From contig CAVPIW010000007.1 in NCBI GenBank assembly GCA_963705105.1, forward strand, positions 1 to 64,000: a stretch of 64,000 nucleotides of DNA, given 5' to 3'. The notes below the pieces were generated by a model, which saw nothing but the letters and a program-made list of their open reading frames with translations, made no database searches and was not told the DNA's origin. The translations under genes were made by a program, and so were the position numbers. Shown here piece by piece: positions 1 through 29,672 of the stretch; within the stretch, counting starts at the first letter, position 1; every line of letters begins with the position of its first letter. This DNA is from an uncultured Nitrospiraceae bacterium. Its GTDB lineage: Bacteria; Nitrospirota; Thermodesulfovibrionia; Thermodesulfovibrionales; Dissulfurispiraceae.

Positions 1-106
1 GTCGCCCGCGACGGCCGCTGTCAATGACATTGAGACACCAAAGCCGAGTCAATCAAAGAAGCGCCGCGATCGATCACGATGCGGGTCGATCGGGGTGTGG
101 CCCGGA

Positions 107-1138
107 CTATCCGGCCATGCGGCGGGCGGTCGGGTCGGGCGATCGTGGTCCTGGGCGATCCTGGCCGGCGTGTTTTTCACGGGCGGGTTGATCCAGACGG
201 CTTCGGGAGATCGGCGGGGTGCGGACGGCCTTCATGAAGCGCTCCGGATGCGCGGCATAGGCCGCGGCGAACACCCAATCGCGATGCGCGCGCACCGTGC
301 CGGGTCGGCCGAGGTGGACCACGGCCGGCGTGAGGAAGCCGAGGCCACTGGGATGACGCCCTGGCTTACGAGGGAAAGAACACCTGGCCGAACGCGTCCG
401 CTCCATCGATTCGAACCGTCGGGAAATCTGGGACATAATTTCAGCGTTCTGAACTGGGATTCGGAAAATGGGTCGTCGTTGCACATGTACGGGCCGGCCG
501 CGGCGTCTTGACCACCCCGAGATCGCGACAGCAGGGCGACGGCTTCCGTGCGCATCGCGCCGCCCCGGTCGGCATGCAGCGTGAGTTGGCCGGGCGAACG
601 CGGACGGGCGCACGTCTCGGCGATGAGCCGCTCGGCGAGCGCGGCGCTCTCGTGGGGCGCAATATCCAGCCGATGATGTACCGACTGAAGATGTCGAGGA
701 TGATGTACAGAGAAAGGTACGTCCACTTGACCGGGCCGAGGAGCTTCGTGATGTCCCAGCTCCAAATCTCGTTCGGCTGCGTCGCGAGCAGCTCCGGCGC
801 GGCGTACCGGGGGCGCCGGACCTGATTGCGCCGCTCCTTGACCTCGCCGGCGGCGTCCAACAGCCGATACATCGTCCGCGGCGAGCAGAGATAGGTCCCT
901 TCGTCGAGCAGGGTCGCGTGGACCTCTGCCGGGGCCGGATCAAGAAACCGGACGCTGTCGAGCGTCTCGAGCACGACGTGCCGCTCGGCCGGATCGAGGG
1001 CCCGTGGTGGTGTTGGCCGCGGGGCCGGCGGACGGGGTGGCTGGCGGCGCCGGTACAGGCTCGCGCGCGAGACGCCCAACGCGTCGCACGCCGCCGTGGC
1101 GCCCAGCGTCCGCTCGCCGTCTCCACAGCCGTCATCAA
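107..1138 (-). pseudogene. IS3 transposase OrfB (DDE/rve integrase core), frameshifted
   Basis: PELLATQPNEIWSWDITKLLGPVKWTYLSLYIILDIFSRYIIGW, LHADRG and NDDPFSESQFRTLK motifs spread over several frames. Confidence 0.88.
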
Positions 1139-1227
1139 TCGTCCTCGTCGCTCGGCAGCGGATTCAGGGGGATCTCCAGCAGCGTGGCAACTTCACCTAG
1201 AAAGTCCCCCCCGCCGGCCCCGTCCGC

Positions 1228-2448
1228 CTACGCGGCCAGCGTGACCTGGCTCACGTCCACCCGAGGTCCGCCAGGCGCCGGAGATGATAGCGCGGCAATT
1301 TGCGGGTGTTCATCCGGTCGAAGTAGTCGGGACCGAGGTCGAAACGCCACGCCGTTCTTGAGGATTGGTAGGCGATCACGAGGATGCTGTGCGCGACCGT
1401 GATCGCGGCCCGCTTGGGACCTGTCGCTTGCTGATGCGGCAGAATTGGGCGCCCAGCTAGTTCCTCTTGGAGTGCGAGGCCGCCCAGGCCGATTCAAGCA
1501 AGGTCGTGCGCAGCCAGTTGTTGCCCGTGCCGGTACCAGCGCTGCGTCGCTTGCCGGCGCTCTCGTGCGTGCCGGGGCAGAGGCGGGCCCAGGAGGCCAA
1601 ATGTGCCGCGGTCGCGAACCGGGACATATCGGTGCCGATCTCCCAGAGAATTACCTCCGCGGATCGCCGCCCGATGACCACCATTGTCTGCAGGCGGTCG
1701 AGGTGCGGGGCAAACGCCTGCGCGAGGTCGGCGATCGCGTATGGTAGGCGGCGATTCGCGCCGCGAGTTCATCGACCTGCGCCAGTATCTGGGTGAGCAG
1801 GAACCGGTGATGCGGCGAAAGCGACGCGCAGCGCCTCGGCGAGTTGTTGGACCTTCGGCTTCAGGCTGCCCCGGGCGAGCGCGGCCAACTGCGTCGGATT
1901 GGTGTCTCCCGCCGCCAAGGCGTCCAGCATCGCCCGTCCCGACACGCCGAGGACGTCCGACACCACGCTCGCCAGCTTGACATTGGCGGTTTCGAGGATC
2001 TTGCGGAGGCGATTGACGGTCCGCACGCGGTCGCGGATGAGGCTCTTGCGGTGGCGCGTCAGGTCGCGCATTCTGGCATCTCCGCAGGCGGAATGAAGCT
2101 CGCCCGGATTAGCCCGTGCGCGACAACTCGGCGAGCCACTCGCAGTCCTTCACATCGGTCTTGCGGCCCGGCACGGCCTTGATGTGATGGGCGTTGGCGA
2201 AGACGACGCCGAAGCGCTCCTCGAGCACGTTGAAGACGGGCTGCCATATACACCCCCGTGGATTCCATCGCGACGTGCGTGCACGCGTGCTCCGACAGCC
2301 ACGCCGACAGTCGCAGGATCTCCGCGGTCGTCGTGCCGAAGGATTGGACGGCCGTCTCCTTACGTCGGCCCTCCTGCACGCGCACACACGCCACGAGCGA
2401 GGCCTTGTGCACGTCGATTCCACAGCACCGGGGATACAGCACCTCCAT
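1228..2448 (-). pseudogene. IS110 DEDD recombinase/transposase, multiple frameshifts
   Basis: MEVLYPRCCGIDVHK, VAMESTGVY, GRKTDVKDCEWLA, EIGTDMSRF...LASWARLCPGTHESAGKRRS...GNNWLR motifs; GGAGG RBS. Confidence 0.9.
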
Positions 2449-2786
2449 AGCGGACCTCCCTGGGCGGGGCGCCGGGAGTGCCACAGGGTGAGAGTTTACC
2501 TGGCGTGCTCCGCAGTCCCACGTGGGGTGCGGGAACAGTACGGGGTGCCTGAGGCGCGGCACTCGGGTCCATTTTTTTTCCGGGCTGGCAGCACCAGTAA
2601 GCGTCGACCTCCGCCCGGCGCGCTCACCACGCCGACGGTACCACTTTCATCCCGACGTGGGTGCGTCACGGGGATGACCATTTTTTTCCGGGCTGGCAGC
2701 ACCAGTAAGGGTCGACCTCCGCCCGGCGCGCTCACCACGCCGAAGTACCAGTTTCATCCCGACTGGTGCGTCACGGGGCATGACCA
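2449..2786 (-). ncRNA. Putative IS110 bridge-RNA-encoding left end
   Basis: ~340 nt non-coding end upstream of the IS110 gene with several hairpins and an A8 tract matching the target flank; position matches known IS110 bridge RNA loci. Confidence 0.55.
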
Positions 2787-2794
2787 TTTTTTTT
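2569..2794. repeat. Tandem duplication of ~106-109 bp (two diverged units) bounded by three CCATTTTTTT(T) motifs
   Basis: Units begin at 2569 and 2678, third motif at 2784; shared CGGGCTGGCAGCACCAGTAAG...CTCACCACGCCGA...TTTCATCCCGAC...GTGCGTCACGGGG. Confidence 0.95.
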
Positions 2795-3244
2795 GGTAGG
2801 CGATGATTGTCTCCGCCCGTTGCAGGCGGCGCTCAAGTCGACGATTTTTGTGACCAGGGCCGTCTTCTCCCGCTCCAACGTCTTCACGCGCGGATCGCTC
2901 GACGTCGGCTTCCGGCCTCGCTTCTTCGGGGTCAAGCGGCGCTCGCGCTGCCGCCGCCAGGTCACCAGATGCGAGGAGTAGAGCCCTTCCTTCCGCAACA
3001 GCGCGCCGAGCTCGCCCGTGCGCGTGCACGCATCCGCGCGTCGGAGGATGTCGAGCTTGTAGGCCGTCGTGAACCGCCGCTTGGCGTGGCGCGCCGGCAC
3101 TTCGGGATCCGGCGCCAGGGCGGTCGGCGCGCGTTCGCCGACGGAAGACCCTCCGCTGCGGGGCGCCTCGCTTCGCTCGTCGCCCCTCCGCTCCGGCTCT
3201 TCCGTCGGCGAGGGGTCTCGGAGCAGACGGATCGTATTCATCAA
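2787..3244 (-). pseudogene. IS3 OrfA (HTH), 5' part; the C-terminus lies at ~1135-1191 beyond the IS110 insertion
   Basis: DPEVPARHAKRRFTTAYKLDILRRADAC...LGALLRKEGLYSSHLVTWRRQRE, then ...LQRAETIIAYQKK. Confidence 0.85.
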
Positions 3245-3403
3245 GGGCCTGGCACCTCCCCGCCCTCAACAGTAATTACGGGTGCGTGAAGTGTCTCACC
3301 TATCTTGGCAGGGAGGGCGACGAGCAGCGTGCGCACGGTGTTCAGCGGCACCGAATCGGAGTGGAGGCATCGCCGCACACCTCGTTCTCGACGTGGCTGT
3401 AGA

Positions 3404-4200
3404 TTAGCTGTTCACAGGCGACGCGCCAGTGCCATTGACGGGAGTTCGCGCGGTACGAGATGACGGTGTACTTCCGTCCGTGTGCAAGCCCTTGCTGCAG
3501 GAAGACGAGGATCTCGTGATCTGCGGGATGTGCGGAATCAGATCGTGTGGTGCCCGGCGCGGCGCGATCCCCGTTGACGCGACCGGGCCCTCCTCGAGCG
3601 AGGCAACGAGATACCGCGTCGCCACGCCGAGCTCCAGTCGCCGGCCGATGGGCGTTCTGACCACCACCTCGTATTGCTCGTACGGCGGCGCCGGCACGTT
3701 TACGGGGCGGTGAGGCTTGTCGTCTTCGCCAGAGACGGCGATCCACCTAAGTTGCAGCCTCAGCGCGGCACGTTGCGCGACGGTTCCACGCAGCGCCCAG
3801 GCGACCAAGCAATGGTCGAGCGCCCTGTCCATGGCCGTTTGATCCCGTCATCGGATGCATGTATGGCCTCCCCCGCCAGCCGCTGACGGGTGTTGCCACG
3901 GCAACCAGGTTCAGCGCATTCCTGAAGCGGTCGTAGGTCAGCCGACCGGTGACGGCGAGATCCGCAAAGGCGGTCGCACGATTGACCATCGCCGCGCGCG
4001 CCTCGCCCGCCGCTGTGCGGTCGGCTCTCAAGAACTCTGCCGCGGCGTGCGCCAGGACCACGTTCGGGTCGCGAATCGTGGCCCGGCCGCGCAGTTCAGC
4101 GATCAGACCATCTTGTTCGCCGCGTCGACGAATTGTTCGGGCGCCCGAAAGAAACCCGGGTGCGGCGGTTCGCTCCACGGCGTCAGCGACGATTCGAGTC
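3404..4200 (-). pseudogene. Fragmented hypothetical protein, possibly the N-terminal part of an alpha/beta hydrolase
   Basis: Protein-like segments ADLAVTGRLTYDRFR and WIAVSGEDDKPHRPVNVP...TRYLVAS in adjacent frames. Confidence 0.4.
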
Positions 4201-4253
4201 TCATCGTCTGCCCTCCCGATTGGCGCACGATCATCTGGGCCCGACGGCTTCGG

Positions 4254-5670
4254 TCAGAATGCTGCGCACGGCATCCACACAGCGGCGCCGATCCCGTGGT
4301 CGAGCGCCCAATAGGATGAATGCGCCCGCAAGAGGCTCGATCCTGAGAGCTCGACGTCCTTGATACCCGTGCCAAAGACCGGCTCCAACTTGCCGCCAAC
4401 GATGTCGTGGGTAAAGTAGAAGTTGGTCCAGCGGGTTACGGCGAAGAACGCGTGATGCTGCAGCACCAGGACATCGCGGATGCGCGCCGTCTCGATCGAC
4501 AGGTTGATCGTGAACCTGCCGGGCTTCACCGAATGACTGCGATCGGGCGGACACGTCGGGAGCTCGCGCATGTGCTTCTTGGCTTTGAACTGGTCGATCC
4601 CGTCCGCGAGGAGGATCGGCGCGTAGGCGAGCGGGCTGCCCATCGTGACGAGGTCGGTGACGATCCAGCGGCCGTGCGTGCATGTCTCGGACGGGAGCTG
4701 GATGCCCGACGGCGTGTGCCGCGTGAACAAGCGCCACGCCGGCCGCTGGTTGGTGCGAAATGTCTCGGGTCGTGTACGGCGGCGCACCGGCGAACTCCGG
4801 CACACCGTTACTGCCGCTGAAGTTCTCGACCTGCGCGAAGTCGCTTCGGACACGGGCATCCTGGAGTGCACCTCGTGGAAATAGTGAGTGAGGATGTCGT
4901 AGGCGATGACGCTGCCCAGGCTGTGGCCGACAAGCACGATACGGCCATAGCGGAACATCACCACGTCGCCCTCCTGGTTGTGATCCTCGTGCAGCTTGCG
5001 CAGCATCGCGACACCGCCGCGCAGGATGTCGTAGCGCCGGGCGACGTTCTTCGGATTGACGTCGAGGTAGCGCGCGGCGTCTCCAGCCACGTCGAGAATC
5101 GCGCCCAGCGCCAAGGGCCGGACGGTGTATCTCAAGAGCACACCGAGAACCGCGATCACCATCGCCGCCCAGCCGGCGTCCATGATCTCGAGCGCCGGGC
5201 ATGAGCCACGCTCGTGGCAGTACACCGGATACGCCAGGATGCCGACAACCAGGATTACGACGACGATCGCGATCGCCCAGACCATGTACACGAGGCGCGA
5301 GAGCCGAGGTGGAAGCTGGTCAATGCTCTCGCCTGGGGCGGTCCACCCGCGCTTCATGACGAGCCAGCCCCACGACACGATGTGCGAGATGAGCGTCCTG
5401 CACATATCGTGCGCCCAGCAGACCGGTAGAAATCGGTATCGGGCCAATCCTCCACCTCCGGGTCGTCCGCCGGCCGGCGACGGAGCTTCAGCCGCCGCAA
5501 CTCAATGAATCGGAGATCTCGTCCGGTTTGCTGTAATACGCGCCGCCGGGAAGAAGCGCTTGAACGAACCGGCGCAGCGTCTCCATCGGCCGCTGCTCGC
5601 CGATGCCATGGATGAACACGACCGCTTGCCGCGGCTGCGCCGGCGCCGCCCCGTCGTCGCGGATGGCCAT
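4254..5670 (-). pseudogene. Membrane-associated alpha/beta-hydrolase-fold protein (frameshifted or internally deleted)
   Basis: RQAVVFIHGIGEQRP N-terminus, TM helices, IVLVGHSLGSVIAYD nucleophile elbow, LVTMGSPL, DIVGG, AHSSYW. Confidence 0.75.
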
Positions 5671-5905: not shown

Positions 5906-6340
5906 CTAGGCTACCGCGGCCATGGCGGTCGGTTGCCGCCTTGGAAAGGGTTCGGTGGCGGCGGACCACGGCAGCGCCGCCCACGAGCTTGTAGCCGAGG
6001 GCCCGTACACCGATTCGACAAAGTGCCAGTCATCCGTCACCCCCGGTTCCGGAGTGCCCTTGTTCCAGCTGAGCGCCTCCGCGAGGATGCGTGAGGAGAA
6101 CGGCACAAAAAGAGCGCCTCTGTCGGCGAAGGAGGTCGGGCAAGAGCATCCCTGAACCGGCAGTCGTTCAGGTTCACGCCAACCAACCTACAGCCCTTCT
6201 CAATCGCGACCTCGATTTCGTCTTTGACGAACTGCGTCTTCGGGTGCGTATCTCTTCCGATCAGAAGGACGAAAGTGTCGACGCGGCGCATTTTCGCGCG
6301 ACAGACCTTCTTGACGCAGGAACGGTCCATCGATTTGATC
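5906..6340 (-). pseudogene. TIR-like (DUF1863/MTH538, ThsB-like) protein remnant
   Basis: KMRRVDTFVLLIGRDT...FVKDEIEVAIEKGCRLVGVNLN with the conserved Glu; N-terminus lost, C-terminus in another frame. Confidence 0.7.
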
Positions 6341-6439
6341 GCCTATCCAGCGCGCCCCAGGAATCGGCCGTTGCCCGCGCGAGGCGAGTCCGCCTCCTGA
6401 CTCCGCGCACCTGTCACACCGCGACAAGTCGCGCTGTGG

Positions 6440-6776
6440 CTACGATGGCAGGGCCAGGGTGATGGCGATCGCCTCATCGACCCGTGTCATCTCTGCTGGC
6501 GTCAGGGTGCCCACCCGAGCCTTCAAGCGGCTCTCTAGATCGATCGAATCTGATCGCCGAGCGCACGCCCCTGCTTCCCCTTGACGTGATCAAGGCTTCG
6601 CCCGGAAAAAGCGAACTGACATTGCTGGTGATCGGGAGCACGACCACTCGAGTGCCGTGGCGGTTGCAGGAGTCGTTGGACACGATCACGGCAGGACGCG
6701 TCTTGCGAATCTCGGTCCCGATGACCGGGTCGAGGCCCACCCTGTACACGTCGCCTCTGCGCGGCCGGCGGTTCAC
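6440..6776 (-). CDS. PemK/MazF family toxin (frameshifted near the 3' end)
   Basis: RRGDVYRVGLDPVIGTEIRKTRPAVIVSND...VVVLPITS; continues RALGDQIRSI...VDEAIAITLAL. Confidence 0.88.
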
Positions 6777-7003
6777 GCTGGCCAGCCCTCCCCGTCCATG
6801 GTGCTCCAATCGTCGACCTCGGCTTGTCGCCAGTGTTCCTTGGCTGCCGCCTGGTACGCGCGGTCCAGTTCGTCGCGGCCTGGTCGCACGCGGGCGCGCA
6901 CGGCGTCACTGATGAAGCGGCTGATGCCTTTTGGCGGCAGCTCGCCCTCTTCAAATGATCGAAGACGTCTTTCGTCGATCGTGATGTTGAGACGGACGGC
7001 CAT
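6773..7003 (-). CDS. RHH-type antitoxin partner of the PemK toxin
   Basis: 76 aa MAVRLNITID...ISRFISDAVRAR...YQAAAKE...DDWSTMDGEGW; overlaps the toxin start. Confidence 0.8.
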   Translation of the reverse strand: MAVRLNITIDERRLRSFEEGELPPKGISRFISDAVRARVRPGRDELDRAYQAAAKEHWRQAEVDDWSTMDGEGWPA

Positions 7004-7013
7004 GACATCAATC

Positions 7014-7028
7014 CTGTATTCAATACAG
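7014..7028. promoter_or_regulatory. Palindromic operator upstream of the antitoxin
   Basis: CTGTATT-C-AATACAG perfect 7-bp inverted repeat 10 nt upstream of the start codon. Confidence 0.55.
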
Positions 7029-7151
7029 CATCACGAGTCGAGCCGACACGGACGACCCGAGTTGTGCACGTGACCCGTTCGGCGTCGTGCCCGCGCTCAA
7101 GTAACGCTCAGTCGCGCAGGGCGGATTCTGGATCCGCCCTGCCGTTCCCGG

Positions 7152-8105
7152 TCACGCCGCATCGGGCTCGATCCCAAGCCGGTCGTTCACGGCGTGCCGG
7201 AGCTTCTGCTTGCAGCCGAGGTAGCGTTCGGTCGTCTGAATCGACACGTGGCCCAGGAGGAACTGAATCTGGTCGAGTTCGCCGCCGGCCAGGTGGCAGA
7301 GCCTGGCGCACGTGCGACGTAGGTCATGAGGCGCGAGCTTCTCGATGCCAGCCTCGGCCGCTGCAGTCCGGACGACATCCCAGAGCACTTTGGCGGTCAT
7401 GCCGTTCCCCCAGACGCGCCCGCGGCGGTCGATAGCCCTGAACACGGCGCCGTCTCTGATGCCGGCCACGGACGTCCAGGCGTCCATCGTGGCCTTGACC
7501 CACGTCGGGATCGGCACCGTGCGGACATGCCCGCCTTTCCCAATCAGGTCGGCGATGACCCAGTGCTCTTCCCGCTGTTGAATGGACTTGAGGTCGAGCG
7601 CCAGCAACTCGCCGCGGCGGAGCCCACAGCCGAGGAGCACGGCCAGCATGGCGTGGTCGCGCAATTCGCGCGGCGTGGTCGGCGTGCGTCGGGTGAGCAG
7701 CCGCCGTCCCTGCTCCGACGTCAGCCAGTTGCCCAGCCGCACACCGAGACGGCGGACGCCCTTGACGCGGCGAATGCCGGCGGCCAGTTCGGGACTGAGG
7801 AGACCGGCGTCCGCAGCCTCGTACGCGACGCGCCGGACGGCCGCGAGTCGAAGGTTGATGGTGGCGGGGGCGTAGTGCTGCTGCTCGAGGTGGATCCGAT
7901 ACCGGAGCACGACCGTCCGGTTGAACGCGAGCCGCGGCTCCGAGCAGTACCAGGTGACGAACTCCCGGATCGCATGGTCGTAGGTGCGCTGGCCACTGGC
8001 CGACGTGAGGCTGGCGAGTACGGCACCTTTGGCGTGCTCGAGGTCCGGCAAGGCGAGCACGCGCTTCGGAGCCTTCTTCCGCGTTCGACTCGGGGCATGG
8101 GGCAT
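7152..8105 (-). CDS. Tyrosine recombinase/integrase (XerC/D-like)
   Basis: RDHAMLAVLLGCGLRRGEL (R), GKGGHVR (K), PHDLRRTCA (H-x-x-R), LLGHVSIQTTERY (H/Y). Confidence 0.93.
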   Translation of the reverse strand: MPHAPSRTRKKAPKRVLALPDLEHAKGAVLASLTSASGQRTYDHAIREFVTWYCSEPRLAFNRTVVLRYRIHLEQQHYAPATINLRLAAVRRVAYEAADAGLLSPELAAGIRRVKGVRRLGVRLGNWLTSEQGRRLLTRRTPTTPRELRDHAMLAVLLGCGLRRGELLALDLKSIQQREEHWVIADLIGKGGHVRTVPIPTWVKATMDAWTSVAGIRDGAVFRAIDRRGRVWGNGMTAKVLWDVVRTAAAEAGIEKLAPHDLRRTCARLCHLAGGELDQIQFLLGHVSIQTTERYLGCKQKLRHAVNDRLGIEPDAA

Positions 8106-8164
8106 GTGGGACGGCCTCCAGGTCCGTCGCCTGTGAGCATGCCGCATTCCGTATATACTGAATC

Positions 8165-8449
8165 GTGTTCGAGTGGGACGCGCAGAAGGCCGCGGCCAAC
8201 GCGGCGAAGCACGGCGTCACGTTCGACGACGCCGTGACGGTGTTCGTCGACGCTAACGCACTGGATGGCCCCGACCTCGCGCACTCCGAGGCGGAGCCGC
8301 GCTACCTGCGTCTGGGCACTGCCGCCGACGGGCGCGTGCTCATGGTGGCTTACACGATCAGGAGACGAGCCGATGTCGAAACAATCCGCCTCATCAGCGC
8401 GCGGCGTGCGAGCCGGCGGGAGCGCGCGGCGTACCGCGCGCAGAATTGA
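8165..8449 (+). CDS. BrnT family toxin
   Basis: FEWDAQKAAANAAKHGVTFDDA...HSEAEPRY...IRLISARRASRRER. Confidence 0.92.
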   Translation: MFEWDAQKAAANAAKHGVTFDDAVTVFVDANALDGPDLAHSEAEPRYLRLGTAADGRVLMVAYTIRRRADVETIRLISARRASRRERAAYRAQN

Positions 8450-8666
8450 CTTCAGCGACATCCCCGAGGCGTCGGCGACCCAGCTGGGGGCCATGCGCCG
8501 GGTGGGGCGACCGCCGCTTGGGGAGACCGCCCGCCAGTTGATCGCGATCCGGCTCGACGCCAAGGTCCTGGCGCGGTTCCGCAAGGAAGCGCGGCGCCGC
8601 GGTGTGGGCTACCAGACGCTCATCAACGAGGTGCTGGCCGAGCACGTCCGCAAGGACGTAGCGTAG
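8373..8666 (+). CDS. BrnA family antitoxin
   Basis: IDFSDIPE...GRPP...IAIRLDAKVLARFR...GYQTLINEVL. Confidence 0.9.
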   Translation: MSKQSASSARGVRAGGSARRTARRIDFSDIPEASATQLGAMRRVGRPPLGETARQLIAIRLDAKVLARFRKEARRRGVGYQTLINEVLAEHVRKDVA

Positions 8667-29665: not shown

Positions 29666-29672
29666 TAAGGGT
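29660..29672. other. Abrupt junction between two unrelated genomes
   Basis: hemG stops mid-gene (ASGIYAGDP) and the patatin gene begins mid-gene (WGFFEVETW); composition and frameshift density change here. Confidence 0.85.

Follow-up and report, generated by a model that had tools for sequence, protein, structure and literature searches.

The IS621 bridge RNA is among the closest described relatives of the system examined here, and the accounts of it (PMC11208160, PMC11208158) describe a recombinase with DEDD and Transposase_20 domains, a long left end and a short right end, a 2-nt core, and a two-loop RNA with guides for the left target, right target and left donor. The locus described below, in a window by which we mean the whole 64,000-nucleotide stretch of contig that was analysed, shares these features. 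It differs from IS621 as described there in that the recombinases of its intact homologues are 408–413 amino acids long and its core is AA, with the right-target guide lying 5' of the left-target guide and no covarying right-donor guide found, while the copy in the window also has a partial extra left end. Likewise, the seekRNAs of ISEc21 and the IS110 subgroup (PMC11187229) resemble this system in their upstream non-coding region, and the same report describes ISEc21 as also targeting other insertion sequences (IS3-family members) and places the subgroup to which IS110 belongs at 395–455 amino acids, a range into which the homologues studied here fall.

In ISPpu9/MITEPpu9 (PMC12288879), an IS110 element carries an additional non-coding module attached at its core, and tandem copies of the module are also reported. 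However, the ISPpu9 module has both ends and circularises, whereas the extra unit in the window has no right end (no CTAGGT) and therefore cannot excise as a mini-element; another locus recovered in this study, L071, is closer to ISPpu9 than the window element is. TIGR arrays (PMC12045711) offer a further likeness in their tandem units with two short guides each and in the Nop-related RNA-binding domain of their partner protein, but these are described as regular, multi-unit and processed with diverse spacers, whereas here we observe two near-identical units, one incomplete, at a single locus. There are only two units, and the gene downstream is an IS110 recombinase, whereas TIGR units lie beside a Tas gene. 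Direct repeats joined at a short perfect repeat are also described for microhomology duplications in E. coli (PMC1428787), although the amplicons in that report are kilobases long and formed under stress, while a 108-bp event, as here, would fall within one replication fork, a case which that report covers only as prior work. Two further papers were used for comparison (10.1101/2025.10.25.684509, 10.64898/2026.10.21.760802). In the literature searched, which consisted largely of openly available main texts, we came across no account of IS110 elements targeting their own guide DNA, of multiple target loops or of frameshift-site targeting.

An IS110-group element in an IS3-family host

The IS110-group insertion sequence lies at 1192–2786 on the minus strand and is 1,595 bp in length, or 1,489 bp without the extra unit. 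A contig from sequencing run X3 contains the corresponding empty site, with position 1191 joined to 2787, 1,595 bases skipped and 2 letters common to both sides, and as this fixes both ends, the element is 1192–2786 with an AA core and both units inside. Over 514 bases, the empty IS3-family copy in this run departs from the window at 15 letters and by 4 gaps. Full-length homologues measure 1,480–1,507 bp in 20/21 cases, with one of 1,584 bp, and the window element without the extra unit lies within the main range. Its left end is 338 bp (232 bp without the extra unit) and its short right end (1192–1227, minus strand) is 36 bp and terminates in ACTTTCTAGGTG plus the core, with no target duplication beyond the core. 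The recombinase gene (1228–2448, minus strand) has about eight frame changes and one internal stop, judged by eye from a three-frame translation, and matches PF01548 (DEDD_Tnp_IS110) in two frames and PF02371 (Transposase_20; E 4e-18), with 57–71% identity to an intact 408-aa homologue. In its domains, ends and core, the element conforms to the IS110 bridge-RNA group. We also noted an invariant GAAAGT (2643–2649) some 30 nt in from the left terminus, whose inverted complement, ACTTTC, occurs in the right end (1200–1205); the pair is possibly a sub-terminal inverted repeat, longer than the 2–3 bp reported for IS110-group elements.

The host is an IS3-family element on the minus strand, whose first ORF (2787–3244; HTH_Tnp_1) ends in the A8 tract that forms the left target, and whose remainder with the integrase core (107–1191; rve) is frameshifted too. 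The right end of the IS110 element adjoins this host directly. No other copy of the element was found in its own genome, and an Rfam scan of positions 1–5000 returned nothing beyond a chance match to an sRNA (E 3.1).

The window is the start of its contig (C7), and the first 29.7 kb have a GC content of 65–73%, compared with about 57% for the genome, and a tetranucleotide distance of 0.036–0.040 against a median of 0.012, which is about three times as large. A hemG-like gene, the only match in this genome, is cut at about residue 165 at the GC shift, and relatives match only from about position 29,667 onward. Positions 1–29,667 are therefore probably a chimeric, foreign contig end, and findings from this region should not be assigned to the organism of this genome. 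Judging by its contig sizes, the genome appears to be a long-read assembly. Tetranucleotide profiles as foreign as that of this contig end were also seen in G000:C6:10000–80000, G000:C4:1–10000 and G000:C3, parts of which have 65–71% GC, and these are possibly further chimeric or contaminating pieces. Elsewhere in the window, positions 6037–8666 hold an intact ORF (7152–8147) flanked by small ORFs; from their translations, we take the former to be tyrosine-recombinase-like and the latter to resemble PemK-type and BrnT/BrnA-type toxin-antitoxin genes.

The duplicated left end and the predicted bridge RNA

A tandem repeat at 2569–2794 has a period of 108, 2.1 copies, 92% matches and a TRF score of 394, which is far above chance level, and the two other tandem arrays in the 64-kb window score only 50 and 70. 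The duplication of the left end reported in an earlier, sequence-only reading of this DNA is thus present in the assembly. On the minus strand, the outer unit (U1; 2681–2786, 106 bp) runs from the left end of the element through a right-target guide and an inner hairpin to an A7 left-target guide, and the inner unit (U2; 2572–2680, 109 bp) has the family consensus except for the loss of G from CATG and A8 in place of A7. The full order on this strand is host A8, TGG, U1 ending in A7, TGG, U2 ending in A8, TGGACC, the remaining non-coding end and the recombinase gene. All three A-tracts (host A8, 2787–2794; A7, 2681–2687; A8, 2572–2579) are followed by TGG, in agreement with the earlier observation that the units end as the flank/element junction does.

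The best global alignments of U1 and U2 contain 5 indels and 3 substitutions. U2 holds the family state at 6/8 of these differences and departs from it by A8 for A7 and by the lost G of CATG, a motif intact in 45/45 homologues. U1 carries six private changes, with its variants TGAAAC, GTACTTC and ACCCTTAC found in 0 homologues, and a G-to-C change breaks its TGAAAG motif at a base that is G in 47/47 homologues and lies in the motif complementary (inverted) to the right-end ACTTTC. Conversely, U1 and U2 have motifs in common that are absent from all 48 homologue rows, and because these private motifs are shared, the two units derive from one copy and not from two siblings; a diverged sibling as the source of U1 was rejected on these grounds.

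Six of the eight differences are located in the scaffold and one is the length of the A-tract. The five indels exceed the local rate (1.7 expected, P about 0.03) and 5 of the 6 changes in U1 cluster within 26 nt (P about 0.04), and since the indels are too many and clustered, uniform error alone is insufficient to account for them. The split of changes is lopsided, with U1 keeping the terminal CATG and U2 keeping the guide, as would be expected of copies that aged under selection, but not significantly so (6:2, P 0.29; 6:1, P 0.125). The excess and clustering of changes in U1 fit either an unpolished single-read stretch or the decay of a real spare copy. In a leave-one-out analysis with deletions counted, the departure rate of the window was 4.7% compared with 0–7.3% in homologues, and the window was not singled out for substitutions; it was singled out by deletions, with 5 against 0 in each of 17 homologues, these having been selected for an intact ORF.

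None of the indexed sequencing runs contained half of the query words, and the duplication is described as it stands in the assembly. A small share of the words (0.12 at most) was present in 20/22 listed runs, and no RNA run was among those with matching words. Contigs from four runs represent relatives, none of them 99% alike, with little cover over U1, which carries no weight either way. A contig from run X2 matches U2 through the A7 tract over 51 bases, with 2 other letters and 1 gap, and its other 147 bases were not placed on U1; by tally, the relatives' contigs from this run have 11 gaps in about 1,365 bases. Three indels are common to two or three runs and therefore belong to the window.

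A single bridge RNA is predicted at 2472–2618 on the minus strand, with a target loop followed by a donor loop inside one closing helix. RNAalifold analysis of 34 aligned left ends gave 38 pairs in columns 72–223, of which 8 have two-sided changes, all outside the target-loop helices. The target loop is predicted to run GGTC, right-target guide, inner hairpin, left-target guide, GACC, and the GACC that would form the 3' arm of its outer helix (2566–2569, minus strand) occurs once, after U2 only. The GGTC/GACC helix pairs G-C, G-C, U-A and C-G in 34/34 sequences, and as the target-loop helices are invariant they have no covariation support; they are consistent with the alignment rather than proven by covariation. 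The target-loop helix was missed when sequences were folded singly (its pairs having a probability of about 0.1 in U1 and U2 alike), and the predicted fold therefore rests on the alignment.

The left-target guide of the intact target loop is the A-tract at 2572–2579 (minus strand), which together with the next TGG forms an internal copy of the left junction. This guide equals 7 bases of the left flank in 38/44 homologues, 18 of which have switched together to AACAAAA on both sides, and covariation of the A-tract with target flanks, which the sequence-only reading had put forward as a check, is thus observed; the first base of the right guide after the core likewise matches the right flank in 19/22 homologues, although all of these guide-flank counts come from related homologues and are not independent. 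The right-target guide slot is GACGCTTAC in U2 (2597–2605, minus strand), the commonest variant (15/48), and GACCCTTAC in U1 (2705–2713, minus strand), which occurs in 0/48 homologue rows, a difference between the units that had been read correctly. Also as reported, GACCCTT differs by one mismatch from GACCATT, the reverse complement of AATGGTC. However, its assignment as donor-matching did not hold, as this slot tracks the first base of the right target and the donor-matching stretch is instead the left-donor guide CCAGGTAAA (2495–2503, minus strand), which resembles the right end plus core (CTAGGTG-AA in the window compared with CTAGGTA-AA in 21/22 homologues). When homologue left ends were inspected by eye, no stretch covarying with the variable right donor was seen. 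The domains of the recombinase, the guide-flank matches and the RNAalifold result bear out an IS110 element with a left-end bridge RNA, itself a prediction, and with its fold modelled in this way the element appears to be a standard single-module one.

The sequence-only reading had also described a compensatory base pair in one hairpin, and had used this covariation to argue against read error. Alignment of the units places this 6-bp perfect hairpin at 2747–2767 (minus strand) and in U1 only. In the 4 of 72 co-optimal U1/U2 alignments from which its derivation was read, the CCAG of U1 arises from CCCAC-G by two deleted bases with no substitution at a paired position, and the stem as a whole reflects two deletions, which bring A beside G, and one substitution. 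Across 34 aligned left ends, the 4-bp hairpin of the family never changes on both sides at once, and as many as 5 sequences leave it unpaired; RNAalifold on the same 34 sequences called no pair in columns 1–71. Furthermore, when 3 random deletions and 3 substitutions were simulated in U2, a perfect stem of at least 6 bp appeared in 2,173 of 20,000 trials (~11%). Because the stem originates from deletions, lacks two-sided change and resembles stems that random edits produce at this frequency, covariation provides no argument against error. Perfection of the U1 hairpin by template switching was considered and rejected, as both arms would need to change, which is not parsimonious. Separately, a short hairpin after the terminal CATG (alignment A1, columns 8–23) is free in sequence and by eye appears self-complementary in many homologues; RNAalifold made no call of a hairpin at these columns.

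Homologues of the element

Homologues were drawn from the best 80 of 316 confirmed genome loci, from five whole genomes and from a metagenome scan with 68 pattern matches, of which 23 were dropped as unrelated (20 by filter, 3 by inspection) and 45 were kept, these giving one match each. Merging duplicates and dropping 3 false matches left 48 distinct rows, four of which share a flank with another row; all 48 are related and counts from them are descriptive. Unit number in other copies, which had been suggested as a further check, was one in 48/48 rows, and no further unit was found beyond the left end in the 39 rows with at least 110 nt of flank, apart from one chance hexamer. Many rows are short-read contigs, which could hide a 108-bp repeat, but several are in contigs of hundreds of kb to Mb. 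In a set of 401 genomes of one class, with two candidates scored per genome, 17 genomes had a match and no adjacent matches were found among 19 places; matches were strong in only 4 genomes (6 places), all single. Viral contigs gave 36 pattern matches, none of which was the element on inspection, and plasmid records gave no match to it. Among the best 80 of 316 loci, the recombinases nearest to the query piece (70–74% over that piece) comprise four from Acidobacteriota/Vicinamibacteria assemblies and a fifth from a Rhizobacter bin.

Of the best 80 genome loci, 69 have enough upstream DNA for comparison, and three of these have close repeats, one within a host gene. In L045 (positions 17–300) two bridge-RNA-like modules lie in tandem with a period of about 152 and 75% identity. 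The first of these modules (target and donor) ends at its own donor-guide slot, which reads like the target of the second element, and is followed by a typical left end; an intact 413-aa IS110 recombinase is encoded downstream, and the contig ends just upstream of the modules. As the module is joined at the donor-guide slot, guide DNA does serve as a junction site within this branch. The stretch behind the right end of L045 gave no match to a sibling remainder. In L071 (positions 65–196) an ~89-bp mini-element, comprising a left end, a hairpin and a right end, is joined at the core to a full IS110 element. Incomplete family members were also observed (L089 (G003:C8), L171, L193, L003 and L005), one lacking the 5' end, two broken in the donor loop and two without the expected right end.

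Origin of the duplication and the junction/guide rule

We lean towards slippage or template switching between short repeats, in the cell or in vitro, as the origin of the duplication. A standard single-module IS110 element inserted at the A-tract of the IS3-family element, and some 108 bp downstream of its left junction (left target, core and first donor bases; A7-8 TGG) the left-target guide DNA repeats that junction. If a polymerase slipped or switched template between these two direct repeats, be it in a living cell, in library preparation or in sequencing, it would copy the left end twice, so that U1 would be a truncated target loop and its differences from U2 would be uncorrected consensus errors or neutral decay. 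The duplication is bounded exactly by the 10–11 bp junction/guide repeat, and a perfect repeat of this kind of at least 8 bp is found in 41/46 homologues (10 bp in 28). Slippage is the likeliest origin because the repeat that bounds the duplication is built into the family, and it gives the observed structure in one step; duplications with microhomology junctions are known in E. coli (PMC1428787). We infer both the slippage step and the cause of the U1/U2 differences, and L045 stands against this explanation, as its diverged sibling module is joined at the guide and recent slippage cannot make such a join. An unlikely alternative, second in weight, is that the recombinase made the junction at its own guide DNA through the left-target half-match, leaving U1 as a remnant and not a working module. 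Two routes could lead there: integration of a circle at this site followed by collapse of the two long repeats, whether through homologous recombination or during assembly, or else a single strand-transfer step between sister copies that linked the mimic to a left end. The junction between the units is exactly of the left target/core/right donor type, the type that the self-targeting proposed in the sequence-only reading would give, and in L045 and L071 (2/69 distant loci) a full element meets a sibling piece at the core. Published reports describe half-site matches as sufficient for IS621 recombination in vitro (10.64898/2026.08.31.748434), tandem repeats of CazIS110-1 in 3/96 colonies (10.1101/2025.10.25.684509) and recombination of ISPpu9 at internal end-like boxes (PMC12288879). 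Against this, the simple form of that proposal, insertion into a sibling element, fails, since the right end adjoins the IS3-family host directly and no sibling remainder follows it, and since U1 and U2 share private motifs; as nothing left over from a first element lies behind the right end, this alternative requires a further step. The mimic also breaks a rule held at 22/22 natural sites, where the first right-target base differs from the base following the guide, neither guide variant matches it at the first right-target base, and the product is present in none of the 48 close homologue rows. Recent work favours copy-out without site regeneration (10.1101/2025.10.25.684509), and the idea that U1 began as a mini-element, left behind when excision occurred at the mimic and later re-targeted, was rejected, with no solo unit among the 45 metagenome matches. 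From sequence, slippage and a recombinase-made junction at the same place would be indistinguishable.

Two other explanations carry less weight. It is improbable that the duplication was created by the assembler or polisher and that no molecule has two units. The region does lie in a foreign, frameshift-rich contig end, and long-read metagenome assemblies have been shown to contain chimeras as well as false duplications that lack support (10.1101/2025.04.22.649783). However, the repeat ends precisely on 10–11 bp, which points to a polymerase or recombinase, and the genome itself has no second copy to merge, though the true source organism may have one. A repeat of 10–11 bp is shorter than the overlaps or k-mers used by assemblers. 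Very improbable, in our judgement, is a functional two-guide bridge RNA or incipient array in which U1 provides another right-target guide, one suited to A7-GGG or A7-TGG sites, and is maintained by selection. U1 does retain both of its guide slots together with the inner hairpin, there is one GACC arm with which its 5' arm might pair in an alternative fold (probability 0.09–0.10, equal to U2), and the change in its guide brings it closer to the left junction of the element itself (5/6 bases). But U1 stops at the end of the left-target guide, without a GACC closing arm of its own and without a donor loop, and as such a truncated target loop it adds no second guide. Moreover, 0/48 homologue rows have two units and 0 have the variants of U1, the base broken in U1 is kept as G in 47/47 homologues, and the hairpin has no two-sided change in 34 sequences. 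The U1 guide also fits the occupied site (AAGTTG) worse than the U2 guide, which retains a wobble, and its first base for A7-TGG sites is still wrong, whereas a real A7-TGG clade (L126, L137, L144) has it. The suggestion of an array of diverged working modules, or multi-module bridge RNA, is accordingly not upheld: the units do not each hold a complete loop, do not recur in homologues and do not diverge mainly in their guides, and at the level of sequence this possibility appears already largely refuted by the homologue survey. The duplication is a one-off that is probably inert and may be artefactual, and as one damaged copy at a doubtful contig end it matters little by itself; the guide/junction rule, the targeting of A-tracts in other insertion sequences and L045 merit more attention.

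Across the family, the base after the left-target guide is the first donor base in 46/46 rows and is the first right-target base in 0/22 natural sites, while the internal mimic does match, which disfavours insertion by the recombinase at the mimic. In IS621, handshake bases that pair with cognate DNA are described as blocking strand exchange (PMC11208158), and by analogy a handshake-type lock may act here as a safeguard of self-avoidance, although the geometry differs from that of IS621. A clade with the right guide TGG (L126, L137, L144) has changed the next base to C together with its donor end, as predicted by the rule, in what is a single evolutionary event. The rule (46/46 compared with 0/22) is relevant to the design of bridge-recombinase constructs in which the guide gene is on the same DNA as donor or target. 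A broader and doubtful extension is that guide DNA is a recombination hot spot at which the recombinase joins new left ends, so that modules could stack toward multi-loop bridge RNAs and TIGR-like arrays; the window would then be a young, real example dividing labour, with U1 keeping the donor end and U2 the guide, L045 would be an old one, and the lock would usually prevent the process. If recombinase-made guide junctions are common, they would suggest how guide arrays could have developed from single bridge RNAs, and in a form open to testing.

The insertion of the window element at 2787–2794 has counterparts in other members with the A7 guide, which were found at A-tracts in L002, L003, L083, L127, L134, L143, L144, L147, L151, L154, L156, L173, L181, L183, L189 and L191. 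When left flanks were scanned in one frame per flank, with flanks of <25 codons omitted and related hosts included, 16/25 from the A7-guide clade matched HTH_Tnp_1 or HTH_Tnp_IS630, compared with 0/12 from the AACAAAA-guide clade. The A7-guide clade thus behaves as a parasite of other insertion sequences, inserting where an A-tract closes their first ORF, at what we take to be the usual programmed-frameshift site of the IS3 and IS630 families.
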